Source of the DNA: a virus
Lineage: Duplodnaviria; Heunggongvirae; Uroviricota; Caudoviricetes
DNA length: 64,000 nucleotides
IMG/VR virus record: IMGVR_UViG_3300034102_002177
Direction: 5' to 3' (one strand)
The notes beneath the pieces are model-generated. The model searched no databases and was not told where the DNA came from. It saw only the letters and a program-made list of their open reading frames with translations. The translations under genes and the position numbers were made by a program. Numbering within the stretch: the stretch's first letter is position 1; each line of letters opens with the position of its first letter. Shown one piece after another: positions 6,352-62,931 of the stretch.

Positions 6352-7206
6352 ATGGATTTAAAAGAAGTTGCTAACGAAATACGTGAGATAATTGCTCAGA
6401 AGCAAAAAGAACTTAAACTAACGTTTGAGGAGGATTCTCATAAGTATACGATGATAGATGTTGATGGTAAATTAAGAGATGATTTCCCATCTGTTTCAAA
6501 AGTTCTTAAATCATTTTATGAGGAATTTGATTCTGAAGGAATTTCATACAGAAAGGCAAATGGAGATCCGTACGAACAACAACGACTATTAGAAGAATGG
6601 GCGGCGGCTGGTGAGTACTCGGTAAACATTGGATCTAGATCTCACTTCTTTTTAGAAGAACATACGTTAAATGAGTTCGGTCTTGAGAAAGAATTGAGAC
6701 AACCTGTTTTTAAATGTGATGCCGAACAAATCGTTAAAAGTGATACGATGATAGTGGCCGGCAAAAAATACATTGATCTTCTTAAAGAACGAGGATGTGT
6801 ATTATTAGATACTGAAATTGTATTGGGTCACCCTGAATTAGGATATACAGGACAACCTGATAAGGTTTGGTTAGTTATTGGTGTTAATGGTCAAGTTGGT
6901 ATACTTATCACGGATTGGAAAACAAACAAACCAAAAAACTTTGAAACCAATAAGTTTACAAAGCAAATGAAGACACCTCTTGATCACTTACCGGATAATG
7001 CTCTTGGTCACTATAAAACACAACTTCCACTATATGGTAAGTTATTGTTAAAAATGTTAGAGGGATCTAAATATGAGAATATCCAACTATTAGGATGTAT
7101 TATTGTTCTAATAACAGAAGAAAGAGAGTATGTTGAACATAGAGTTGATAAAAAGACAATTAATACTATCTTAGAGATGAATGTTAAACAATATTTGAAA
7201 AAATAA
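6352..7206 (+). CDS. PD-(D/E)XK-family nuclease (lambda-Exo/YqaJ/Cas4-like recombination exonuclease)
   Basis: GQPDKVW ... ILITDWKT gives PD-x(n)-DxK. Sits between primase and Mre11/Rad50 genes. Confidence 0.5.
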   Translation: MDLKEVANEIREIIAQKQKELKLTFEEDSHKYTMIDVDGKLRDDFPSVSKVLKSFYEEFDSEGISYRKANGDPYEQQRLLEEWAAAGEYSVNIGSRSHFFLEEHTLNEFGLEKELRQPVFKCDAEQIVKSDTMIVAGKKYIDLLKERGCVLLDTEIVLGHPELGYTGQPDKVWLVIGVNGQVGILITDWKTNKPKNFETNKFTKQMKTPLDHLPDNALGHYKTQLPLYGKLLLKMLEGSKYENIQLLGCIIVLITEEREYVEHRVDKKTINTILEMNVKQYLKK

Positions 7207-7225
7207 ACTTTAAAAATTATATTAA

Positions 7226-7438
7226 ATGGATGATATTTTAAAACCAAGAATTGACCTTAAACAACAACCAACGGTTACTTGTGAGGATTGTGGGTCAAAG
7301 TACTTCAAAGAAGTGGTATTATTAAAAAAAGTACCAAAGTTATTAACCGGAAGTTCAGAAGATACGATCGTACCATTCCCAACATATATGTGTAATTCAT
7401 GTGGGTTTGTTAATGAGGACTTCATATTATTTGATTAA
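7226..7438 (+). CDS. Small zinc-ribbon protein
   Basis: CEDCGS ... CNSCGF pair of CxxC. Confidence 0.4.
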   Translation: MDDILKPRIDLKQQPTVTCEDCGSKYFKEVVLLKKVPKLLTGSSEDTIVPFPTYMCNSCGFVNEDFILFD

Positions 7439-7582
7439 AATGGAAATTGGAAAAATGACAATAAGTGAGGTATATCCTCATTTGAAAACTATATCGCTTG
7501 CGTATGGTTTAAGATTAAACAGATCAAAAGATTTTAAGTTAGCAAGAATTATTTTAGCAAACCTTTATAGTAGAGAATTAGT

Positions 7583-7828
7583 ATGACATACAAAGAATTT
7601 TACATTTGGTTAGAAGGATTTATGACCAATAGAAGTTGGACAGTTATTCAACAATCCGACATTGAGGGAATTCAGAATAAAATGAAAGAAGTTAAAGAAG
7701 TGAACCAACCTGGTATGTTTGATCCTAACAGAATACCAATACCGGTTAACCCATTTCCTAAAACTGATGACCCATTTAAACCACCATTTGAAATATATTG
7801 CAGAGACAAAACACAATTAAATGATTAA
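7583..7828 (+). CDS. Hypothetical protein
   Basis: 81-aa ORF in the operon run. Confidence 0.3.
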   Translation: MTYKEFYIWLEGFMTNRSWTVIQQSDIEGIQNKMKEVKEVNQPGMFDPNRIPIPVNPFPKTDDPFKPPFEIYCRDKTQLND

Positions 7829-8600
7829 GAAAATAGTACACTTTTCTGATTTACATATCAGATTATTTAAAGATCACGATTTATACCGATCAATATTAGA
7901 GACGGCAATTAAACAATGGAAAGAATTAGAACCTGACCGTATAATATTTACGGGTGATTTAGTTCATTCTAAAAACCAAATAACACCCGAACTTATTGAG
8001 ATTGTTGCTTGGATTTTAACTGAATGTTCATTCATTGCTAAAACTGTTATTATACCTGGTAATCACGACTTTTTGGTAAACAATACCGAAAGATTAGATG
8101 CTCTTACTCCTATTATTAATTCTTTGAGGAATGAGGATATTGTGTACTACCGAGATAGAGGTGTGTATGAGGATGAGAATATTAGTTGGTGTGTCTATTC
8201 GCAATATCAGGCTAATATCCCACCGGATTTGAATGTTGCCACGGGAATTAAAATTGGTTTATTTCACGGACCAATTCAAGGAATGAAAACCGATCTTGGT
8301 TTTGATTTTGGAGAAGAAGCATATGATGTGGATAAGTTCAACGGACTTGAAGCCGTACTATGTGGTGATATACATAAAAGACAGGAATTCAAATTCAAAA
8401 CCGGTAAAGGTTATATGATTGGAAGCCCTATTCAACAGAATATTGGAGAAAGTATTGGCAAACATGGATATGGTATTTATGACATTGTCAAAAAAGAATA
8501 TTCGTATGTTGATCTACCGAACCCAAAACCATTTTTAAAGTTCTCCATAAAATCATTTGAAGACATTGAAAATGGAACAGAAAAACTCCAAAATATTTAG
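7821..8600 (+). CDS. Mre11/SbcD-like metallophosphoesterase nuclease (T4 gp47-like)
   Basis: Calcineurin-fold motifs HFSDLHI, FTGDLVH, PGNHDF, FHGP, CGDIHK. Adjacent to a Rad50-like gene. Confidence 0.75.
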   Translation: MIKKIVHFSDLHIRLFKDHDLYRSILETAIKQWKELEPDRIIFTGDLVHSKNQITPELIEIVAWILTECSFIAKTVIIPGNHDFLVNNTERLDALTPIINSLRNEDIVYYRDRGVYEDENISWCVYSQYQANIPPDLNVATGIKIGLFHGPIQGMKTDLGFDFGEEAYDVDKFNGLEAVLCGDIHKRQEFKFKTGKGYMIGSPIQQNIGESIGKHGYGIYDIVKKEYSYVDLPNPKPFLKFSIKSFEDIENGTEKLQNI

Positions 8601-13267: not shown

Positions 13268-14068
13268 ATGAAGGACAAAAACTTAGGAATACCTATTAAC
13301 CAAGACGAAGTTTACCACTACCTTAAAGACATCAGAAAAATCAAAGTAATGACTCCCGACAGAGAGCGTGAGTTAGCCGTTAAGATGAAATCAAATGAGA
13401 TTTCAGACAAAGAGAGAAAACAAATTGAGGAAGAACTTCTTATAGGTAACTTAAGATTTGTCATTACTGTGGCGAAGCAGTACCAAAACCAAGGTTTAGA
13501 TTTACAAGATCTAATTGCTGAGGGTAATTATGGTTTGATGAAGGCAATCAAAAACTTTGATTGGGGAAAAGACCTTAGATTTATATCTTATGCGGTATGG
13601 TGGGTTAAACAATCAATTATTCAATCGTTAAATGATAATGCGAGAACAATAAGATTACCGGTGAATGTTGTTCAAGATCTTCATAGAGCAAAGAAAGAGT
13701 TGGAACAGACAGGTAAGAAGTTGGAAGACAAATTTTCCACATTACCATCAATCATTGATTTGGACATGAGAATTAATGATGAGGGAGATACTCTTATTGA
13801 TATGATTGCGAATCAAGATGCTGAGGCTCCTGATGCTTCTTTTCATACAAAAGATATTCTAAAAGAAAAAATGATGACCTTGTTGGATGTTTTAGATGAT
13901 CGTGAGAAGTCAATCATTGGGGATTACTTTGGGTTAACAGGAACTCCAAGAACTTTAGAGGACATTGGTAGTGATTTTGGTCTCACAAAAGAAAGAGTAC
14001 GTCAGATTAAAGAAAAGGCGTTAAGACGATTAAGAAACGATAGTTCGGAACTATTTGATTATTTGTAA
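13268..14068 (+). CDS. Sigma-70 family (RpoD/RpoS-like) RNA polymerase sigma factor
   Basis: Region 2: LIAEGNYGLMKAIKNFD. Region 3/4: TLEDIGSDFGLTKERVRQIKEKALRRLR. Confidence 0.8.
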   Translation: MKDKNLGIPINQDEVYHYLKDIRKIKVMTPDRERELAVKMKSNEISDKERKQIEEELLIGNLRFVITVAKQYQNQGLDLQDLIAEGNYGLMKAIKNFDWGKDLRFISYAVWWVKQSIIQSLNDNARTIRLPVNVVQDLHRAKKELEQTGKKLEDKFSTLPSIIDLDMRINDEGDTLIDMIANQDAEAPDASFHTKDILKEKMMTLLDVLDDREKSIIGDYFGLTGTPRTLEDIGSDFGLTKERVRQIKEKALRRLRNDSSELFDYL

Positions 14069-22664: not shown

Positions 22665-23594
22665 ATGGAAGATTATTATAGTGTTTTGGGGGTTAATGAA
22701 AGTGCGACCCAAGAGGAGATTAAAAGAGAATATAGAAAGTTAGTAAAAGAGAACCATCCTGATAAAGGAGGGGATGAAGAGAAGTTTAAAAAAATCTCAA
22801 CGGCTTATGATACAATAGGTGACGAAACTAAACGTAGGCAGTACGATCAACAAAAAAACAATCCATTTGGTAACATGGGTGGATTTGGTGGAGCATCTAT
22901 GGAAGAAATGATGAACAGTATGTTTGGTGGTAATCGTAGACAACAAACTAGAGTTCACGATACTGTTATTGATGTTCATATTGGTGTGATAGAATCTTAT
23001 ATGGGTGGAAAGAAAACAATGACATATAATAGAAAGGATAAATGTAATCCTTGTAATGGAACAGGTGGTGAAAAGAAAGTATGTCACACTTGTGGAGGAC
23101 AAGGATATACAGTTAAACAAATGGGTTCAGGTATGTTCATTCAAATTGTACAGGTTGCTTGTGGAACTTGTAATGGTGTTGGAAAAATAACAACCGCCGC
23201 TTGTTATGCTTGCGGTGGACAAGGGGCTAAAAACACAATAAACACAATAGAAGTACAATTACCACATGGTATTGATGATGGTCAATTTTTAAGGTTACAA
23301 GGACTTGGTGATTACAGAAATGGGGGTTACGGTAATTTAGTTGTGAGAATAAGAACGATAAATGAGGGAAATTTTGAAAAGGATGGACCTAATTTAATAT
23401 ATAATGCATTTTTAAATATTGGAGATTTTCAAAAAGGGGATTTTGAGGTACCTCATCCCGATGGATCAATAAGTATTAAGTTTCCTAATAATATAGATAC
23501 CTCAATGCCGTTAAGAGTTAAGGGTAAAGGGTTCAAATATCAACCACAAGGTGATTTATTAATTAATCAATATTTAAAATATAATAGAGGTTAG
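22665..23594 (+). CDS. dnaJ: DnaJ (Hsp40) type-I co-chaperone
   Basis: J-domain with HPD (ENHPDKGG), G/F-rich linker, four CxxCxGxG zinc repeats. Confidence 0.85.
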   Translation: MEDYYSVLGVNESATQEEIKREYRKLVKENHPDKGGDEEKFKKISTAYDTIGDETKRRQYDQQKNNPFGNMGGFGGASMEEMMNSMFGGNRRQQTRVHDTVIDVHIGVIESYMGGKKTMTYNRKDKCNPCNGTGGEKKVCHTCGGQGYTVKQMGSGMFIQIVQVACGTCNGVGKITTAACYACGGQGAKNTINTIEVQLPHGIDDGQFLRLQGLGDYRNGGYGNLVVRIRTINEGNFEKDGPNLIYNAFLNIGDFQKGDFEVPHPDGSISIKFPNNIDTSMPLRVKGKGFKYQPQGDLLINQYLKYNRG

Positions 23595-24714: not shown

Positions 24715-26778
24715 ATGGAATTAGTAAGAATTTTATCAAAAGTTATTAAAGAAAACGTAAATATTAAAAAAATATTATTAGAATATCCCGAATCAACGGT
24801 TAAAAAACTATTGGATAAGTTTTCTGGAGAAACTGATGATACTGAGGATGAAATCAAGAAAACAATATCTGATTTTGAAAGATTTAAAGGTGGTTTTGCT
24901 ATAGATGAAAAAAATGAACTTAAACAACTTAACGACGAGTTAAAAACTTTAGAACCGTCTTCTCAAGAGTATATAGATTTACAAAATAGAATTCGTGATT
25001 TAAACAAAAGAGTACAAGATACCTTAGACATATTCAAGTACGACTATGAGAGTTTAAAAAATCTGACCGCAGATAAATCCACAAAACAAAAAACCAAAAA
25101 AGATCTTGAAAGTATAGCTCAAGAATTTGTTACCAAACATAAAGGTGCTGACTTACAATTAGTGAAAACAAATATTAAAAAATATTTTGAGTTAAAAACT
25201 TTGTTCCCTGAACAAAAATTATTCAAAAGAGAGATAACTGAATTAACACCATCTCAGTTGAGTGATTTAGTTGGTAAATTCTTTTCTAAATTTAATGAAA
25301 GAGGGGAAAATGAGTTAACAAAAAGGATGACGGAAAAGTTTTCTAAAGAAAATCCGGATGATGATCCACTTACCGTAATATTACCAAGGGTTAAAAGATT
25401 TGTACATCACTTTGAATTAATTCCATTAAACGCTAAATTAAGTGCGTTTATGACATTTGATGACTTTGAACATTTAGTTGATGGTTACACACCAATGGGT
25501 GAAGATGAATATAGTTTACCTGAAATTGATTTAGATGACGTTGATATTGCGTATGAAGATGATGACATATTAATTTTTGCTCCTGATGAAAAACAAAAAT
25601 GTATTAACATTAGAAAAAAACACGCTCCTGATAGAAAATGGTGTACATCTTGGGAAGGATCAAGTAATTACTACTACAATTATAGATTAAATCAAAACTT
25701 AACATTATATTATGTTATTAGTAAGAATTTACCTGAATCTGATGTGAACTATGCGGTTGTTGTTCTTGTTGATAGATGGGGAGGAATGAGATTGGCGGAT
25801 GGTACCAATTCAGGTAAATATGCTGGTGGACAAGAAATTGATTGGTCTGAAATTATTAGAAAGGTCCCTACATTACGAGATAAGAAAGAATATCTTGAAC
25901 CAAAACCATTTAGTAATGAGGATCAAGAAAAAATGCAGAGATACAAATCTTATAACTTAAAAACTGATGACCCAATACAAGAGTTAGGTAGTGTTGAAGA
26001 AGTTGAATTATGGATAGAATTAAGAGGTCCTGACTTTAGTCATATGAGTAATGGTGATGTAATATTTGGTAAATTACCTGAAGAATTACAAAGAAAATAT
26101 ATTGGTTTAGGAACTGAGTTAAGTGGTGGGATGGTTAAAGTCCTTAAAGGTGGGGCACTAGGTTATTATGTGTCAAAGAAAAAAGAGAAGTTACTTACAA
26201 AGACATTAAGTCAGTTAACTTCAAGTGATATTGAAACAATTAAGACCTTAGAAATGAGACCTTATTTAAGAGAGTTAAAAAGAAAATTCTCTAAGGAGTT
26301 AGTTTCTAAGGATATGGGATCATATGTTCAATTAGAATACCCTAAAGATGATGCGTCTAAATATGTTGCTCTATTTGGTTTTGAGGAATATTTTGATTCT
26401 ATTCCTGATAATGTTGAATTTATTAACATAGAGAATAAATCAAATGATGTGATTGCGGAGAAACTACCTGAATCAATAGGAAGATTTACTGAACTTAAAA
26501 CATTGGTAATTGATAATTATATTAAATCAATACCTGAAAGTATTGGAAATTGTAGACAATTGTCATTCTTAAATTTAACTAATAATAGTCAATTGGATAA
26601 ATTGCCGGGATCTATTTCTAAATTAACTTGTTTGGAGTTCTTCTCAATTATGGGATCAGATCCAAACATTAAAATACCTAAAAAATTAAAGGATTATATG
26701 ACACCGGATGAAGATTTTTTCTTACTACACTTCCCTGAAAATATGAAAAAACACTGTACCGGAATGGTAGGGTTCTAA
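24715..26778 (+). CDS. Member of the KWCT-core paralog family fused to C-terminal leucine-rich repeats
   Basis: Core DDDILIFAP...RKWCTSWEG...LTLYYVISKN aligns with the 41903, 47763 and 55853 proteins. C-terminal LPESIGRFTELKTLVIDNYIKSIPESIGNCRQLSFLNLTNN are LRRs. Confidence 0.6.
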   Translation: MELVRILSKVIKENVNIKKILLEYPESTVKKLLDKFSGETDDTEDEIKKTISDFERFKGGFAIDEKNELKQLNDELKTLEPSSQEYIDLQNRIRDLNKRVQDTLDIFKYDYESLKNLTADKSTKQKTKKDLESIAQEFVTKHKGADLQLVKTNIKKYFELKTLFPEQKLFKREITELTPSQLSDLVGKFFSKFNERGENELTKRMTEKFSKENPDDDPLTVILPRVKRFVHHFELIPLNAKLSAFMTFDDFEHLVDGYTPMGEDEYSLPEIDLDDVDIAYEDDDILIFAPDEKQKCINIRKKHAPDRKWCTSWEGSSNYYYNYRLNQNLTLYYVISKNLPESDVNYAVVVLVDRWGGMRLADGTNSGKYAGGQEIDWSEIIRKVPTLRDKKEYLEPKPFSNEDQEKMQRYKSYNLKTDDPIQELGSVEEVELWIELRGPDFSHMSNGDVIFGKLPEELQRKYIGLGTELSGGMVKVLKGGALGYYVSKKKEKLLTKTLSQLTSSDIETIKTLEMRPYLRELKRKFSKELVSKDMGSYVQLEYPKDDASKYVALFGFEEYFDSIPDNVEFINIENKSNDVIAEKLPESIGRFTELKTLVIDNYIKSIPESIGNCRQLSFLNLTNNSQLDKLPGSISKLTCLEFFSIMGSDPNIKIPKKLKDYMTPDEDFFLLHFPENMKKHCTGMVGF

Positions 26779-33466: not shown

Positions 33467-33649
33467 ATGGGATTCAATAAAAGAATTTTCACAAAAGAAC
33501 TTATTATAAGACACATTTATGATATTGAAAGATATCTAAGTGTTGATGCGGCATTTTTGAGAGATGATTTCTCAAGAGATGTTTATAGAATGCATAATGA
33601 GGGAAAATCAAAAGAAGAAATAATAAAATACATAAATGAAAACAAATGA
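33467..33649 (+). CDS. Small hypothetical protein
   Basis: 60-aa ORF abutting glnA-like gene. Confidence 0.3.
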   Translation: MGFNKRIFTKELIIRHIYDIERYLSVDAAFLRDDFSRDVYRMHNEGKSKEEIIKYINENK

Positions 33650-34770
33650 AAATTAAGTTAGAGTATGTTTGGCTTGATGGATACAAACCAGAACCAAACC
33701 TTAGAAGTAAAGTTAAAATTGTTGAAAGTGAAGTTCCTATGGAATTAAAAGATATTCCGGTATGGAATTTTGATGGATCATCCACTTCTCAAGCGGAAAC
33801 AGGTAATTCGGATCGTCTTTTAAAACCTGTTAGACAATATACAACCCATGGATTCCCATTCATAAATGATACTGTGTATGTGTTATGTGAAGTATTAAAT
33901 CCTGATGGTACACCACACGAATCAAATAAAAGATCTCAGATTGGAGATAACTTTGAAGATCTTTGGTTTGGTTTTGAACAAGAATACTTTATTCGTGAAG
34001 AAATTAACGGAAACATTTTAGGACATAAAAGAAACATTCTTAAAGGTCAGGGTGAATATTATTGTGGTGTGGGTCATAATGTTGTTGGTCGTGATTTTGT
34101 TGAAGAACATTTAGAAATGTGTTTAAACTACGGAATTGATATTACCGGTATAAATGCTGAAGTTGCTTTAGGCCAGTGGGAATATCAAGTATTTTCAAAA
34201 GGAAAACATAAAGGAGGAGATGATCTCTGGATGACTCGTTACTTCTTATTTAAGATGGGGGAAAAATACGGATATCATATTGAACTACATCCAAAACCAT
34301 TAACTCACGGAGAATGGAATGGATCAGGACTCCACACAAATTTTTCAACAGATATGATGAGAAACGAGGGGAATGAGAAATATTTTATGGCTTTGTTTAA
34401 TGCATTTGAATCAAGACACCAAGATCATATTAAAGCGTATGGGTCCAACAACAACCTTCGTTTAACTGGTGAGTATGAAACTCAATCAATTGATAAGTTC
34501 AGTTGGGGTGTGTCTGATCGAGGAGCGTCAATTAGAGTTCCACAAGATACCGCAAAAGAATGGAAAGGTTATGTTGAAGATCGTAGACCTGGATCAAACG
34601 CGGATCCATACAAAATTATTCGTGAGATTGTTAAATCATTAGACACCACTAAACAAATCTATGAAATGAAAGATATAATGACTAGATTTGTTGATATGGA
34701 TGGTTTAAGTGGTAAGTACAATGCCATATCAAATGAAGAATTATTAAAAGAATATAGAGAGGAGGAATAA
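33646..34770 (+). CDS. Glutamine synthetase, type II (GSII)
   Basis: N-terminal LEYVWLDG, GFEQEYF, GLHTNFST, RGASIRVP. All are hallmark GSII motifs. Confidence 0.85.
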   Translation: MKIKLEYVWLDGYKPEPNLRSKVKIVESEVPMELKDIPVWNFDGSSTSQAETGNSDRLLKPVRQYTTHGFPFINDTVYVLCEVLNPDGTPHESNKRSQIGDNFEDLWFGFEQEYFIREEINGNILGHKRNILKGQGEYYCGVGHNVVGRDFVEEHLEMCLNYGIDITGINAEVALGQWEYQVFSKGKHKGGDDLWMTRYFLFKMGEKYGYHIELHPKPLTHGEWNGSGLHTNFSTDMMRNEGNEKYFMALFNAFESRHQDHIKAYGSNNNLRLTGEYETQSIDKFSWGVSDRGASIRVPQDTAKEWKGYVEDRRPGSNADPYKIIREIVKSLDTTKQIYEMKDIMTRFVDMDGLSGKYNAISNEELLKEYREEE

Positions 34771-49507: not shown

Positions 49508-51364
49508 ATGGGAAAAATAATTGGAATTGACTTAGGTACAACAAACTCTTGTGTGGCCGTTATGGAAGGGAATGAACCGGTAGTTATTACAAATAACGAA
49601 GGTAAACGAACAACGCCATCTGTAATCGGATTCATTAAAGATGGTGAAAGAAAGATTGGGGATCCGGCTAAACGACAAGCGGTAACCAATCCTGAAAAAA
49701 CCGTACATTCAATTAAACGATTTATGGGAACAAGTTTTACTGAATCTAAAAATGAGGTAAAGAAAGTTCCTTATAAAGTTGTAAAAGGAGATGGTGGATC
49801 ACCAAGAGTGGATATTGATAAACGACAGTATTCTCCGCAGGAACTTTCCGCAATGGTTTTACAAAAAATGAAACAAACTGCTGAGGATTATTTGGGTGAG
49901 ACGGTTACTGAGGCGGTTATTACGGTACCAGCGTATTTTAATGATGCTCAACGACAGGCAACCAAAGAAGCGGGTGAGATTGCGGGTTTGGAAGTAAAAC
50001 GTATCATTAATGAGCCAACAGCGGCGGCATTAGCATATGGTTTAGATAAAATGTCTAAAGATATGGTAGTGGTTGTGTTTGACTGTGGTGGTGGTACACA
50101 CGATGTTTCTATTCTTGAATTAGGTGATGGTGTATTTGAAGTATTGTCTACTGATGGTGATACTCACTTAGGTGGTGATGACTTTGATCAGGTTATTATT
50201 GAATGGTTAGCAAATGAATTCAAAGATGAGAATGGAATTGATGTGACCAAGGATCCGATGGCGTTACAACGTTTACGAGAAGCGGCAGAAAAGGCAAAAG
50301 TTGAATTATCTTCAACCTCATCAACGGAAATTAATTTACCGTATTTGATGCCGGTAGATGGGATGCCAAAACACTTGGTTAGAACTTTATCAAAATCTAA
50401 ATTTGAACAACTGGCAGATTCATTAATCAAACGAACTATTGAACCTTGTAAGACAGCGTTGAAAAATGCTAAGATGGATGTGTCTGATGTTGATGAAATT
50501 ATCTTGGTTGGAGGTACAACAAGAATTCCGGCAATTCAAGAAGCGGTTAAACAATTCTTTGGTAAGGAACCATCTAAAGGTGTTAATCCTGATGAGGTAG
50601 TTGCTTTAGGTGCGGCGATCCAAGGTGGTGTACTTGCTGGTGATGTTAAAGATGTCTTATTATTAGATGTGACTCCATTATCTTTAGGTATTGAAACTAT
50701 GGGTGGAGTTATGACTAAATTGATTGATGCTAACACCACGATCCCAACTAAAAAATCTCAGGTGTTCTCAACGGCAGTAGATAATCAACCAACAGTTGAG
50801 ATCCACGTACTTCAGGGAGAACGAGCAATGGCAAAAGATAATAAAACCATTGGTAAGTTCAATTTAGATGGTGTTCCACCAGCGATGAGAGGTGTTCCAC
50901 AAATTGAGGTTACGTTTGATATTGATGCGAATGGTATTATCAATGTTTCTGCAATGGATAAAGGTACAAACAAACAACAAACAATTCGTATCGAAGCGTC
51001 CTCAGGTTTATCAAAAGAAGAGATTGAGAAAATGAAACAAGAAGCTGAGTTAAATGCCGAACAGGATAAAAAACTCAGAGAAGATGCTGAAGTTCTAAAC
51101 ACGGCTGATGGTACAATCTTCCAAACTGAGAAGTCAATCAAAGATTTGGAAGATAAATTAACTGAAGAACAAAAGAGTGAACTTGATGGATTACTTGGAA
51201 CGTTAAAAGAATCTTACGCAAAAAAAGACATTGAGAAGATTAATCAAGATATTGAAAATCTTAATAGTCAGTTCCACCATATTAGTCAATCATTGTACGA
51301 ACAAACTACAACTGAAGAAGGTAATGATGCTCCGTCTGACGTTGAATTTGAAGAAGTACTTTAA
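49508..51364 (+). CDS. dnaK: Hsp70 chaperone DnaK
   Basis: [47 protein letters not shown], full substrate-binding and lid domains. Variant [10 protein letters not shown] in place of canonical DLGGGTFDVS. Confidence 0.9.
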
Positions 51365-57906: not shown

Positions 57907-57927
57907 TTCACTAATATTATAATTAAA

Positions 57928-57956
57928 CCCCATCTTTTTTACAGGTGGGGTTTTTT
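57928..57956 (+). terminator. CCCCATC-loop-GGTGGGG hairpin plus TTTTTT
   Basis: 7-bp stem with one G-U pair, T6. Confidence 0.65.
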
Positions 57957-58666: not shown

Positions 58667-59293
58667 ATGGAAAATTACGAAATACTTGAAAATGGTTTAA
58701 TAAAACAAAAATCTATCGTTAATAAGATCCAAACGTATGATACAAAATATGTGGATGAAAGATATAATCAATACGGTGAAAAAGGACCTCAAATGGCTGG
58801 TATTCGACTTGGATATTTAGTTGGGACTTTAGGTTACTGGCCACAATCCATACTAGATATTGGATATGGTAATGGTGATTTCTTAAAGGTCTGTAAAGGT
58901 GTTATTGAGTCATATGGTAATGATGTTTCAGGATATCCTGTACCTGAAGGTGTTACATACACTGATAATATATTTGATAAACATTACGAGGTGATCTCAT
59001 TCTTTGATGTATTGGAACATTTTGAGGAAATTGATTTCGTAAAAGATTTGGATTGTAATTACGTCTACATTAGTTTACCTTGGTGTCACAACTTTAGTGA
59101 AGAATGGTTTATGAATTGGAAACACAGAAGACCTGATGAACATTTGTGGCATTTTAATGAAAAGTCAATTGAAAACTTCTTCAATGAAATGGGGTATGAC
59201 ATGGTTGATTATTCAAATGTTGAAGATTTAATAAGAGTTTCTGGTGAAGAATATCCTAACATTTTAACTTGTATCTTTAAGAAAAGAAAATAA
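58667..59293 (+). CDS. Class I SAM-dependent methyltransferase
   Basis: Motif I ILDIGYGNGDF, motif II FFDVLEH. Confidence 0.65.
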   Translation: MENYEILENGLIKQKSIVNKIQTYDTKYVDERYNQYGEKGPQMAGIRLGYLVGTLGYWPQSILDIGYGNGDFLKVCKGVIESYGNDVSGYPVPEGVTYTDNIFDKHYEVISFFDVLEHFEEIDFVKDLDCNYVYISLPWCHNFSEEWFMNWKHRRPDEHLWHFNEKSIENFFNEMGYDMVDYSNVEDLIRVSGEEYPNILTCIFKKRK

Positions 59294-60210
59294 TGGGAGA
59301 ATTTGGAATAAAAGTTTCTGAGACATTTGGAGATACGATATATATGACACCTGTAATTGCTTACATGAGCAGGTGTCATAATAAAAAGTTTCATGTTGAG
59401 ACAATGTTTCCTGATCTATTCAAAAACAATCCTTATGTGGAAAAAGTATATAACACCAAAAATGGTGAATTTTTTCCTGAAGATATAATCGTTTATGAAG
59501 CGAAACGAATATTTGAAGGGGATATGTTTAGGCAAAGAAAAATGCATTCAATTGACTTTTATTCAAGTAATCTTGGATTTATTTTAGCGCCTGAAGAAAA
59601 AACTTTATTATATTATCCTGATGAATTGGATATGGAGTTACCTGAAGGAAGATATGTTGTTATAAATCCTTCCGTTACAACTACTTGTCGTACATGGGAT
59701 AAAGAGAAATGGGAAACATTAATAGATATGATCATCAGTACGGGTACAAAAGTTGTTGTTGTTGGTAAAGAAATAAATTACGACCATGAATTTAACAGAG
59801 GTGTTATGCGTGTTGGTGGTGATAAAGTTATTGATCTAATCAATAAATTAAATACCTCACAGTTATGGCATATAATTGAGAATAGTTTAGTGATATTTAC
59901 GATGAACGCAGGATTATGGCCGTTCGCAGGTACAACAGATGCCAACATAATTGCAATGGGAAGTACAATTAATCCTTATTATCGGGCACCATACAGACAT
60001 GGTAGACAAGATTATAAACATTATTTTGTTGGGGGTGAATGTAAAATATTTTGTCATACTGACATGAAGTATAATTCAAGTGGGGATATTAAAGTTACTG
60101 GAGGTTTTCCAATAGCAAAATGTTTTGAAAATAAACCAACTTATGAGTGCCATCCAACGCCAGAAAATGTATTTAAAACATTTTTAAATTTACTTGAAAA
60201 TAAAAATTAA
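59293..60210 (+). CDS. GT9-like glycosyltransferase (heptosyltransferase fold), tandem paralog A
   Basis: N-terminal IKVSETFGDTIYMTPVIAYM and C-terminal NSLVIFTMNAGLWPFAGTTDANIIAMGST match GT9 patterns. Confidence 0.55.
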   Translation: MGEFGIKVSETFGDTIYMTPVIAYMSRCHNKKFHVETMFPDLFKNNPYVEKVYNTKNGEFFPEDIIVYEAKRIFEGDMFRQRKMHSIDFYSSNLGFILAPEEKTLLYYPDELDMELPEGRYVVINPSVTTTCRTWDKEKWETLIDMIISTGTKVVVVGKEINYDHEFNRGVMRVGGDKVIDLINKLNTSQLWHIIENSLVIFTMNAGLWPFAGTTDANIIAMGSTINPYYRAPYRHGRQDYKHYFVGGECKIFCHTDMKYNSSGDIKVTGGFPIAKCFENKPTYECHPTPENVFKTFLNLLENKN

Positions 60211-60212
60211 TA

Positions 60213-61136
60213 ATGAGATACGGATTTAAAATAGAAGGTTGTTTTGGTGATGTGTTATATTCAACACCTGTGTTAAGATATTTGAGTGTGTGTCATAATG
60301 ATAAGATAGATGTTGAAACTAATTTCCCAATTATCTTTAAGAACAACCCATATGTTGGTAAAATATATGACACTAACCAAAATGAATTTTTACCTGGTGG
60401 TCAAGAATTTTATGATTGTAATGGTCATAATTTTGAGGATGTTCAAAAACAAATTAGAAAAATGCATCTCACCGATTATTGGTCAACTCATTTGGGTTTT
60501 ATTTTAACGCCAGAAGAAAAAACAATTAATTTTTATCCGGATCCAATTGACATTGACTTACCTGAAGGTGATTACATTGTAATAAGTCCGTCAAAAACTT
60601 GGGAATGTAGAACGTGGGACAAAGAAAAATGGGAAAAGTTAACTGAAATGATTTTAAAGTTAGGGATAAAAGTTGTTGTTACTGGTAAAGATATAAGTTA
60701 TGGTGATGATATAAAAAGCTCTATAGAAATTGACAATCCTAATGTGATAAATTTGATAAATAAATTAAATTTGTCTCAGTTATGGCATTTGGTTAATAAT
60801 AGTTTGGTTACCATAACTATGAATGCTGGTTTATTACCTTTTGCTGGGACTACAGATGTAAATATTTTGGAATTAGGGGGAGCAATTAATCCGGCATATA
60901 GATCCCCATTTAGGAATGGATCGCAGGAATATAAACACAAATTTGTTGGGGGTTCTTGTAAATTATTTTGTCAGTCAGATATGAAATATAATGTGATTGG
61001 AGATCAAAAAATTACAAGATGGAATAGTTTTGCAGCACCGGCTTGTTATGAAAAAAAACCAACATATGAATGTCACACATCAGTTAATGCTGCTTTTAAT
61101 GGGGTTTTAGAGTTTTTAAAAATGAAAAATAAATGA
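60213..61136 (+). CDS. GT9-like glycosyltransferase, tandem paralog B (about 40% identical to A)
   Basis: Collinear with 59293..60210: GCFGDVLYSTPVLRYL, TWECRTWDKEKWE, NSLVTITMNAGLLPFAGTTDVNILELGG. Confidence 0.55.
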   Translation: MRYGFKIEGCFGDVLYSTPVLRYLSVCHNDKIDVETNFPIIFKNNPYVGKIYDTNQNEFLPGGQEFYDCNGHNFEDVQKQIRKMHLTDYWSTHLGFILTPEEKTINFYPDPIDIDLPEGDYIVISPSKTWECRTWDKEKWEKLTEMILKLGIKVVVTGKDISYGDDIKSSIEIDNPNVINLINKLNLSQLWHLVNNSLVTITMNAGLLPFAGTTDVNILELGGAINPAYRSPFRNGSQEYKHKFVGGSCKLFCQSDMKYNVIGDQKITRWNSFAAPACYEKKPTYECHTSVNAAFNGVLEFLKMKNK

Positions 61137-61567
61137 TAAATCTAAAAGATTATAAAATCATAAAATATAATTACGTTTTATCTAATGAGGAATTAACAAT
61201 TCAGTTATGGGATAAAATGAATTTTGAGGAAACTAGATGGGCGGTTAAACTAACTTTGGAAGGTGTGAATGATTCTTCTTCAGGTGATCAATATCCTGCT
61301 TGGGATATGTTCTTTCTTGAAACAAAATTGGAGGAAAAGATTAGTAATGTACTTTTTAAATATAATATTGAATACGTTATTGAGGATTTAACTGAAGAAT
61401 TGTTAAAAGATGATACTGTATTAACCGAAGAGTTATTAGATAAAATTGAATACTTTTTAGAAAAAAATTTAACCGTTGATGAAGTATTAGATAATATAAT
61501 TGATGTTGGTATTGAAAATATTAGTATCTTTGAAAAATACTATTTGAAAAAACAAAATAATGAATAA
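61133..61567 (+). CDS. Acidic hypothetical protein
   Basis: 144-aa ORF. Confidence 0.4.
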   Translation: MINLKDYKIIKYNYVLSNEELTIQLWDKMNFEETRWAVKLTLEGVNDSSSGDQYPAWDMFFLETKLEEKISNVLFKYNIEYVIEDLTEELLKDDTVLTEELLDKIEYFLEKNLTVDEVLDNIIDVGIENISIFEKYYLKKQNNE

Positions 61568-62624
61568 CAAAGAGAAAATTGTAAAGAGGTTATTATTTGA
61601 AATAATTGATAAAATGAGTAAAGACGCTGATGTTTATCATAATAATGGATCTTTATGGTTAATTCATACTGATGATAGAAAATGGATCGTTGAGTACACA
61701 AAAGAACGAACATTGTGGTTTAATTATAATTTTTTTAGATCTGCCTTTAAATTTGTTTCTTTAGATATTAATGATAAAAATGAATATGTTACCGAATGGT
61801 TTGAGTCAAGATTTTTGAATATGAATAGGGTAAAACACATTTTAGATGTGTCAAATCCTAATCCACCTGGTGTTGAAGACACCATTCAAAATGGGGTGAA
61901 ACGCACCAAAACACTAAATTTGAAAATAGAAGAATCTGTTGAAGACACCATTGAAAATGGGGTGAAACACACCCGGCAATTTGCTGCAAATAAACACTTC
62001 GCGGTTGAAGACACCATTGAAAATGGGGTGAAGAACACCAGTTTTTATTACGATGGATATAACCAATATGTTGAAGACACCATCCAAAATGGAGTTAAAC
62101 GCACCGTACCTGAATCAATTGCCGATTCATTCGCTATTGAAGATACCATTCAAAATGGTGTGAAAGAAACTAATCCTACAAATTTTGCTGCCGTTGATGA
62201 GGCAATTCAAAATGGGGTGAAGGACACCAAAACCTCGATGTCATACCAAACGTTTTCAGTTGAAGATACCATTCAAAATGGTGTTAAGGATACCAAACCA
62301 ATGGATGAGTGGGTAAATGCTGAAAGTATTGTTGAAGGTGTAATGGAGTATGGTGTTAAAGAACTACAACCACTACCGGCACAAGATGGTAATATGGATT
62401 GGGGTAATTACTATCGCGGAAAAGAAGATAGGACAAAACCATTTAATGAATATCTTGATGAAGCAATTAGATTTGGTGTTAAAGAAGTTATTGAAGAAAA
62501 TCATCACAGAACAAGAGAAGTTGTTGTAACAATAAAAGATGGTGTAAAAGAAACTCACCAAGATTGTTCAAATAACATTGCAAGAGTTGAAGGTATAATT
62601 AGAGTTGGGGAAAAATTAGATTAA
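61560..62624 (+). CDS. Tandem-repeat protein: about 10 copies of a roughly 20-aa unit with core VEDTIQNGVK(R/D/E)T
   Basis: Repeat tract at nt 61866-62560, visible also as DNA repeats (gttgaagacaccattcaaaatggggtgaaa...). Confidence 0.6.
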   Translation: MNNKEKIVKRLLFEIIDKMSKDADVYHNNGSLWLIHTDDRKWIVEYTKERTLWFNYNFFRSAFKFVSLDINDKNEYVTEWFESRFLNMNRVKHILDVSNPNPPGVEDTIQNGVKRTKTLNLKIEESVEDTIENGVKHTRQFAANKHFAVEDTIENGVKNTSFYYDGYNQYVEDTIQNGVKRTVPESIADSFAIEDTIQNGVKETNPTNFAAVDEAIQNGVKDTKTSMSYQTFSVEDTIQNGVKDTKPMDEWVNAESIVEGVMEYGVKELQPLPAQDGNMDWGNYYRGKEDRTKPFNEYLDEAIRFGVKEVIEENHHRTREVVVTIKDGVKETHQDCSNNIARVEGIIRVGEKLD

Positions 62625-62625
62625 G

Positions 62626-62931
62626 ATGGGATTTGATAAAAAAATAATGGAATTAAGTAGAACTATCTATCAAACATCTGTCATGTCTCACGGAACAAAA
62701 GCAGATCCAACAAAACAGATTGATAAGATCCGTGCTATGATTAGAGAGTTTATACGAGTTGAGGTGGTTCCATATGAATTAACTAATCAGGAAAAACTAT
62801 CATTCATTTTAAAAAATGAGGCAATGATTAATAGTGCGGTTATGGGTGGTCATCAACCAACAAATCAAGATGAATACCAACCTGTTAGAAATAAAATAAA
62901 ACAATACAGAAAAGAATTGGGGTTGATATAA
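62626..62931 (+). CDS. Hypothetical protein
   Basis: 101-aa ORF. Confidence 0.4.
   Translation: MGFDKKIMELSRTIYQTSVMSHGTKADPTKQIDKIRAMIREFIRVEVVPYELTNQEKLSFILKNEAMINSAVMGGHQPTNQDEYQPVRNKIKQYRKELGLI

Follow-up and report, generated by a model that had tools for sequence, protein, structure and literature searches.

Cores and linkers of the repeat gene

The window that we analyzed, 64,000 nucleotides (nt) belonging to a 64.5-kb metagenome contig (IMG/VR record IMGVR_UViG_3300034102_002177), contains a complete plus-strand gene (61560..62624) that encodes a 354-residue protein built on a tandem array of modules. A module spans 22 residues and consists of a constant core of 12 residues (36 nt) and a hypervariable linker, which is 10 residues long in most units, so that the period is mostly 66 nt. 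Comparisons among alleles and homologs show that the evolution of the array proceeds through homologous recombination in the 36-nt DNA of the cores. By the same comparisons, whole modules have been inserted, deleted, and replaced between strains, single modules have been exchanged between distantly related copies, and concerted evolution keeps the participating cores alike at the nucleotide level. The repeat family is previously undescribed in the databases and literature that we searched.

The reading frame is a real protein-coding gene of the phage. It remains open over 354 codons, followed by a stop, in DNA of 31% G+C; it appears in the list of open reading frames (ORFs), homologs align with it from residue 1, and its first 8 nt, ATG included, overlap the 3′ end of the upstream ORF. 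The identical 354-residue protein was called on eight contigs from independent assemblies, the longest of which is 234.7 kb.

The protein begins with a non-repeat domain of about 100 residues, which is followed by 11 modules, seven with canonical and four with degenerate cores. The canonical modules (61872..62294, plus strand) have their cores at 61872, 61938, 62004, 62070, 62136, 62193, and 62259. The consensus is V-E-D-T-I-Q-N-G-V-K-x-T, encoded in this gene by GTT GAA GAY ACC ATT CAA AAT GGG/GGT GTG/GTT over its first nine positions. Each canonical module has its own unique 30-nt linker, except that the linker after the core at 62136 is 21 nt and that after the core at 62259 is 36 nt; the linkers between canonical cores, 7–12 residues long, show no resemblance to one another. 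An eighth core, VEGVMEYGVKEL (62331..62366, plus strand), is degenerate and has background codons, and its position is fixed in the family. It is followed by a C-terminal segment, QPLPAQDGNMDWGNYYRGKEDRTKPFNEY (62367..62453, plus strand), whose conservation was evident both in the family alignment and in a search for the C-terminal motif. Three degenerate terminal cores with conserved linkers complete the protein (62454..62621, plus strand): LDEAIRFGVKEV at 62454, VVVTIKDGVKET at 62520, and VEGIIRVGEKLD at 62586. One further degenerate core, which we call repeat 0 (FESRFLNMNRVKHI; 61800..61841, plus strand), lies ahead of the array and is fused to the last helix of the N-terminal domain; in the N-terminal sequences of many relatives, the same site is occupied by a perfect core, W-VEDTIINGVKST.

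The repeats are evident in both the protein and the DNA. With up to three mismatches allowed, VEDTIQNGVK occurs seven times in the protein, compared to a mean of 0.0002 and a maximum of 1 in 5,000 shuffles. Residue identity reaches 0.39 at a lag of 22 and is 0.00–0.10 at every other lag in the range 15–29. In the DNA, a 32-nt direct-repeat family has 10 copies, which start at the seven canonical core positions and at 62331, 62454, and 62520, with successive spacings of 66, 66, 66, 66, 57, 66, 72, 123, and 66 nt; an 11th copy at 62586, weak and degenerate, was found by translation. A 29-nt DNA consensus with up to three mismatches matches six sites in the 64-kb window, all inside the repeat ORF, and none in 100 shuffles of the window.

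These results bear on a preliminary description of the same DNA, made from the sequence alone, which had reported tandem repeats in this protein. The repeats themselves are real, and the units align far better than random expectation. The unit had been put at about 20 residues and 60 bp and is in fact 22 residues and 66 nt; the array had been taken to end at 62560 and extends to 62621. The units had also been called near-identical, but repetition is confined to the 12-residue cores, and the linkers between the canonical cores are unrelated. Tandem Repeats Finder, the check proposed for unit length and copy number, called no array at period 66 in the gene because the 36-nt core alone repeats and the linkers are mutually unrelated.

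Antisense ORFs of 43–57 residues within the repeats (61858-62087, minus strand) translate to a repeated HPIFNGVFN. We attribute them to the palindromic nature of the core and do not read them as a sign of a gene.

A large collection of proteins contains more than 2,249 homologs of the repeat protein, all metagenomic and without meaningful names. They share an architecture of an N-terminal domain of about 90–100 residues, a run of modules (4–25 across the family), a conserved C-terminal segment, QPLPAQDGNxDWGxYYxGKEDRTKPxxEY, and one to three degenerate terminal modules. In a survey of 143 family proteins with regular expressions, 131 had the N-terminal motif and 128 the C-terminal one. The core logo of the family is [VI]-[ED]-D-[TAV]-I-[QEK]-N-G-[VI]-K-x-T. 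For analyses of codons and entropy we used units picked by the motif G-[VI]-K, in which core positions 1, 5, and 9 are almost always hydrophobic. The linker is exactly 10 residues long in 867 of 1,698 units, the next most common length being 11 residues (166 units). There are 416 distinct linker sequences, with near-maximal entropy and essentially no preference at any position, and they are not enriched in Cys, Ser, or Thr.

The N-terminal domain is itself conserved. It falls into 439 clusters at 50% identity and always occupies the N-terminal position; its invariant residues include W33, W42, W53, and W80. AlphaFold2 models it (residues 1–104; 61560..61871, plus strand) as a helix, four strands, and two helices, with a per-residue confidence (pLDDT) of 73–90 over residues 1–80 that falls to 64 and then to 33 by residue 100. 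Its structural matches in BFVD at probability 1.0 are all uncharacterized proteins of 105–263 residues from uncultured phages.

The preliminary description had recognized no known repeat family, and our searches agree. The protein had no significant match in Pfam, PHROGs, NCBIfam, or PADLOC. PDB sequences were searched with the protein by itself and with profiles of the N-terminal domain and of the repeat; no match had an E value under 0.06, and the N-domain profile had no match at all. The best Foldseek match in the PDB had E = 0.86. Neither tblastn nor megablast against 50,697 deposited phage records found a match to the protein, its N-terminal domain, a 412-residue neighbor, or 9 kb of the DNA, and none of the 185,579 prokaryotic species genomes that were scanned contained a relative. 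Literature searches yielded nothing on the core motif or on hypervariable tandem repeats in jumbo phages. The family is nevertheless common in IMG/VR, where it is found on contigs as large as 292 and 304 kb. It is abundant in aquatic viromes yet missing from every curated library searched.

Exchange of single modules through core DNA

The preliminary description held that such tracts expand and contract by slipped-strand or recombination events. Changes in copy number are borne out by the range of 4–25 units among relatives and by an allele, L089, that comes from another assembly. Between about nt 130 and the stop codon, L089 and the window gene are 100% identical in nucleotide sequence, save for an exact insertion of 66 nt in L089, which is one module with its junction inside a core. 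Over the first ~130 nt the two genes are about 74% identical, which marks a second recombination breakpoint. In another allele, P0122, one linker is replaced relative to the window gene.

Linkers also recur in genes that are far more diverged. Sixty-eight linker sequences are common to at least two proteins, and 14 of the resulting pairs of identical 10-residue linkers come from genes whose N-terminal domains are 41–72% identical in protein and 61–76% identical in DNA. Within these pairs the linkers differ at 0–1 of 30 nt and occupy different positions in their arrays; single linkers with no nucleotide difference occur in genes whose N-terminal domains share just 41–57% identity. When linkers of the window gene that were found in other loci were compared at the DNA level, the sharing took the form of single-unit islands: all 33 nt of the linker block matched, as did 25–31 of 33 nt in each flanking core, and the linkers next to these islands matched at random level only. 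In a search for linker donors in the flanks of 84 related loci, the matches were confined to unmasked paralogous repeat genes, apart from a few short matches of low significance.

The cores carry a second signature, in their synonymous sites. Valine 1 is encoded by GTT in 98% of cores (52% in the background), threonine 4 by ACC in 85% (16%), glutamine 6 by CAA in 100% (82%), and asparagine 7 by AAT in 99% (67%). Glycine 8 is GGG in 63% (13%), valine 9 is GTG in 60% (14%), and threonine 12 is ACC in 66% (16%). The bias extends to the variable residue 11, where the third base is usually C whatever the amino acid (CAC, GAC, AAC) and arginine is CGC in 75% of cases, compared to 1% in the background; each variant looks as if one mutation had produced it from a single ancestral codon. 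The bias is present in most of the lineages examined, whereas the invariant residues of the N-terminal domains of the same genes, which are conserved at the protein level, have mixed synonymous codons. It also distinguishes the canonical, shuffling cores from the degenerate ones. Canonical cores have GGG in 84% and GTG in 72%, and in degenerate cores the bias is gone (GGT 53%, GTT 44%). Synonymous divergence between cores is 9–12% beside identical linkers and reaches a plateau of 27% between unrelated units.

Together, the one-module alleles, the shared linker islands, the fixation of core codons, and the divergence plateau show recombination and concerted evolution of the cores; that the crossovers fall within the cores follows from the single-cassette nature of the islands and from junctions that lie inside cores. 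Recombination was thus the part of the earlier proposal that held. Slipped-strand mispairing is unlikely and is not needed, since adjacent units share the 36-nt core only and have unique linkers. We also considered a slipped-strand contingency locus and rejected it, as Tandem Repeats Finder reported no period-66 array and the linkers between cores are unrelated.

In mosaic phage tail-fiber genes and in bacterial surface proteins with concerted repeat evolution, such as M proteins, variable segments are likewise shuffled by recombination at conserved stretches, and strains differ in repeat number. The present array differs from these in that the exchanged unit is just 66 nt, bounded by homologies of 36 nt. 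It offers an unusually clean natural case of module-level recombination that can be read directly from sequence, and the synonymous-site conservation of its cores allows concerted evolution and selection on DNA or RNA to be tested against each other in a repeat that is translated.

Fold and candidate functions

Because the 22-residue period is strict and the linker is fixed in length and free in sequence, we infer a regular scaffold of solenoid type with exposed loops. On balance, we lean toward a role for the protein as a modular binding or spacing scaffold whose cassettes are shuffled and whose variable loops serve host interaction. The cores would build a solenoid-like framework, one turn per module; the linkers would form exposed loops of fixed length; and the N-terminal domain would anchor or target the protein. 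Both the scaffold and the host-interaction role are inferred. If the variable loops do bind host components, the protein would represent a new scaffold for host-range or counter-defense variation in phages of Flavobacteriia, and it might serve as a small natural display scaffold.

Structure prediction, which had been proposed as a check for a beta-solenoid or helical repeat, leans toward the former, at low confidence. AlphaFold2 modeled the repeat region as a beta-solenoid with one coil per repeat (pLDDT 45–65), and this low-confidence model is similar to beta-helix proteins, among them phage tailspikes and tail fibers. Beta-solenoids with about 22 residues per coil include curli CsgA, the SufB/SufD beta-helix, and pectate-lyase-like tailspikes, and the low-confidence model is similar to these at the level of the fold. 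However, only 12 of the 22 residues are constrained here, which would leave half of each coil without a defined core. The repeat protein also lacks a signal peptide, and neither the curlin repeat nor any beta-helix family matched it in sequence. Curlin repeats have the motif S-X5-Q-X-G-X-G-N-X-A-X3-Q, and curli subunits have a Sec signal peptide and csg-type accessory genes. We rejected an amyloid of the curlin or CsgA type because there is no Pfam match, the N-terminus is folded and of cytosolic type, and there are no csg-like neighbors.

Leucine-rich repeats, ankyrin repeats, and FNIP/IP22 repeats are expanded in large viruses, where they are thought to be host-interaction scaffolds and vary in copy number. 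They resemble the repeat protein in having a unit of 20–24 residues, in which about 11–12 constant residues are followed by a variable segment; they differ in that the variable segment of the repeat protein is essentially without positional preference. The array does not consist of leucine-rich repeats, as the LxxLxLxxNxL pattern is absent from the core logo and Pfam returned no match to this class.

The core also resembles the helix of dodecin (PF07311, NF043052), matching profile positions ~8–30. A few homologs pass the whole-sequence score of the Pfam dodecin model and are named dodecin at the Joint Genome Institute (JGI). In five homologs, the whole-protein score was 25–30 bits, confined to profile positions ~8–35, and no stretch passed by itself; the NCBIfam dodecin model gave 19.5 bits against a cut-off of 75, and the window protein had no Pfam dodecin match at E ≤ 1. 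Each score adds up fragments no longer than 21 residues, and the rest of the ~65-residue beta-alpha-beta-beta domain is missing. As no fragment is significant alone, we regard the dodecin label on these homologs as an artefact and rejected dodecin as the identity of the core.

Several observations weigh against a solenoid scaffold with host-binding loops. The model has a pLDDT of ~60 at full length and of 45 for five repeats with a register-perfect alignment, the latter being the poorer model. The apolar stripe V1-T4-I5-G8-V9-T12 has helical spacing, the weak profile matches are mostly helical (the dodecin helix, designed armadillo repeats, and an M-like protein), and repeat 0 (residues 75–86) is modeled as a helix. 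This pattern suggests a short amphipathic, Gly-capped helix followed by a loop in preference to strands. The repeat region is very hydrophilic and acidic (grand average of hydropathy −0.78, isoelectric point 4.5) and may therefore be partly disordered. The ratio of nonsynonymous to synonymous substitution (dN/dS) is ~0.57 in linkers, compared to ~0.23 in the N-terminal domain, indicating that the linkers are under weak constraint. A value below 1 is no sign of positive selection, and on that account the linkers may be mere spacers. Finally, the same codon consensus occurs in lineages with 40% identity in the N-terminal domain, which goes beyond concerted evolution alone and needs either cassettes that pass steadily from lineage to lineage or selection that acts directly on the DNA or RNA.

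Among the alternatives to a shuffled scaffold, it is possible, if doubtful, that the protein is a virion fiber, whisker, or adhesin stalk, with a length set by the number of modules, that binds host surface glycans. Such a protein would probably be an obligate oligomer, which would account for the poor monomer prediction. The tailspike-like AlphaFold2 model would suit a fiber, as would a module number of 4–25 and the place of the gene after two glycosyltransferase family 9 (GT9) genes, together with a second copy in the related locus L052 beside a cytidylyltransferase and a family 2 glycosyltransferase (GT2). Mosaic exchange, moreover, is typical of phage receptor-binding genes. Against these points, no tail-fiber or other structural family of PHROGs matched the protein, the conserved neighbors of the gene are a 101-residue ORF, small ORFs, and thymidylate synthase, none of them virion genes, and GT9 neighbors occur in at most 5 of 84 loci. 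Nor does the linker dN/dS resemble that of a receptor-binding surface under positive selection.

We hold in equally low regard a largely flexible protein resembling beads on a string, in which each 12-residue core binds a copy of a ligand or an oligomeric host protein and the linkers are neutral spacers of fixed length. Constraint confined to the cores with nearly neutral linkers is what such a protein would display, and its hydrophilic, acidic composition, the low AlphaFold2 confidence, and the freely varying copy number are compatible with it. But a flexible spacer needs no exact length, and yet 10 residues dominate among the linkers; in addition, no search pointed to a ligand or partner.

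Less probable still is that the array is a built-in diversification device, in which the 36-nt cores are kept at the nucleotide level as exchange sites and a pool of 30-nt cassettes is recombined in the phage population. If this were true, the array would present 10-residue peptides from a combinatorial library on an unchanging scaffold and would be a recombination-based phage counterpart of diversity-generating retroelements or of variable lymphocyte receptor assembly.

We consider it very improbable that the protein is a precursor of a peptide library in the style of multi-core ribosomally synthesized and post-translationally modified peptides (RiPPs), with the cores as recognition or cleavage sites, the 10-residue linkers as products, and the N-terminal domain as a long leader. 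What recommends this idea is a likeness to what is reported for cyanobactin precursors of the PatE type: hypervariable cassettes of fixed length, flanks conserved at the nucleotide level, and cassette swaps in an otherwise identical background. A RiPP leader-binding domain (E = 2.2, at chance level) is also among the best Foldseek matches of the N-terminal domain, none of which is significant. The repeat protein is much larger than PatE-type precursors, with a folded N-terminal part and a conserved, domain-like C-terminal segment. Its conserved neighbors include no maturation enzyme such as a protease, cyclase, or radical SAM enzyme, and the linkers carry no signal of modification-prone residues, with neither enrichment in Cys, Ser, or Thr nor positional preference. 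As a separate matter, we considered a phage prohead-protease motif, (S/A/G)-x-E, at the junction of linker and core and rejected it, as the family does not conserve the residue that precedes the core.

We give as little credence to the idea that nucleic acid is the selected feature, with the 36-nt cores acting as a hairpin array, a mimic of clustered regularly interspaced short palindromic repeats (CRISPR), or recombinase sites, and the protein secondary. Cores are conserved at synonymous sites in most of the family, and the core contains an imperfect palindrome, ACACCATT-CAA-AATGGKGT; the 451-nt region folds better than shuffles (z = −2.97). The geometry resembles that of a CRISPR array, a ~36-nt repeat with a ~30-nt unique segment, and single "spacers" are shared in different order. 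Unlike a CRISPR array, however, this array is translated and its repeats vary at ~10–30% of synonymous codons. The frame is kept, all changes in length being multiples of three. The preferred GGG breaks the perfect palindrome, the ACC-GGT combination is found in only 12 of 257 cores, and single units fold no better than shuffles. Degenerate cores lose the codon bias and keep the G-V-K residues. No Rfam family, including CRISPR repeat families, matched at E ≤ 1, and among 2.9 million viral contigs a linker 30-mer was found inside homologous repeat genes only. The evidence against a nucleic-acid role is stronger than that for it, which makes such a role unlikely.

Two specific forms of this idea were rejected individually. 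For a CRISPR array, the grounds were the frame-preserving ORF, codons that vary between cores, the lack of an Rfam match to CRISPR direct repeats, and the restriction of the linker 30-mer to homologous genes; no cas genes were seen among the window ORFs scanned, a set that leaves many small ORFs outside it. For an RNA hairpin, they were that the T-I-Q-N-G-V codons by themselves give rise to part of the palindrome, that GGG breaks the stem, and that single units have no extra stability.

An assembly artefact, in which short-read assemblers join unrelated fragments at the cores, would be in keeping with the metagenomic origin of all sequences and with 36-nt cores below the smallest k-mers of some assemblers, but it can practically be dismissed given the identical protein from several independent assemblies, a final k of 141 that spans two units, and collinear flanking genes.

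Genomic setting

We examined the neighbors of the repeat gene in 84 related loci with 10-kb flanks. The most conserved, present in 57 loci, is a basic protein of 101 residues (isoelectric point 9.4) encoded immediately downstream (62626..62931, plus strand), which starts 2 nt after the repeat gene in the window and overlaps its end in many relatives. Upstream, an acidic 144-residue protein (isoelectric point 4.3; 61133..61567, plus strand), whose 3′ end overlaps the start of the repeat gene, is found in 22 loci. Neither protein matched any family in the libraries run on them. Thymidylate synthase, usually 0.4–1.4 kb downstream, and a 77-residue ORF upstream each occur in 45 loci. Among 147 non-redundant neighbor ORFs, thymidylate synthase was the sole family found more than four times. 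The repeat gene sits among small ORFs and nucleotide-metabolism genes, with no recognizable virion genes around it.

Several of the relatives have more than one copy of the repeat gene. Two tandem paralogs each are present in L048-L051, L055, L057, L061, L066, L069, L078, L080, and L083. In L052 and L065, a second copy lies on the opposite strand (6906-7985, minus strand) and adjoins the cytidylyltransferase and GT2 glycosyltransferase genes.

From its location after glycan genes, the preliminary description had drawn a hint of a carbohydrate-associated role. Glycan genes do occur sporadically near copies of the repeat gene, as beside the second copy in L052; the association is weak, and because the GT9 neighbors are not conserved, the carbohydrate link is unsupported. 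In the window, the two GT9 genes (59293-60210 and 60213-61136) are adjacent, paralog-like, and downstream of a methyltransferase gene (58667-59293), and this block is specific to the window phage and a few close relatives. Further upstream, a strong terminator-like hairpin (57925-57953; 11 pairs followed by a T run) precedes promoter-like sites; the long run of co-directional genes to which the repeat gene belongs probably begins here.

The 147 neighbor ORFs also contain homing-endonuclease domains (HNH, three; NUMOD3, three; GIY-YIG, two) and one match to Acb3, an inhibitor of the CBASS defense system. The composition of these neighborhoods hints that the repeat-gene region is a variable accessory or counter-defense area.

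The gene content of the window is that of a large phage. It encodes a primase, SbcCD, a sigma-70 factor (13268-14068), DnaJ (22665-23594), a glutamine-synthetase-like protein (33646-34770), DnaK/Hsp70 (49508-51364), Dam, an RNA ligase, glycan enzymes, and glycosyltransferases. Just past the window, the parent contig encodes ClpP and a protein with a sorting domain of the type IX secretion system, and a homolog of the repeat protein lies on the 304-kb contig. Moraphages are aquatic jumbo phages of up to 307 kb with predicted hosts in the Flavobacteriia, and their gene set includes DnaK/DnaJ, glutamine synthetase, a sigma factor, and several glycosyltransferases (PMC12619734). Judged by its gene content, the source appears to be a large uncultured aquatic phage that fits this type; the paper describing moraphages makes no mention of the repeat protein (PMC12619734).

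The phage has a second repeat-type protein, of 687 residues (24715-26778), with a C-terminal leucine-rich-repeat region. No tRNA genes were found in the window (1-64000), and G+C content is 27–36% throughout. GC skew is positive in all 2-kb blocks, consistent with the location of nearly all genes on the plus strand.

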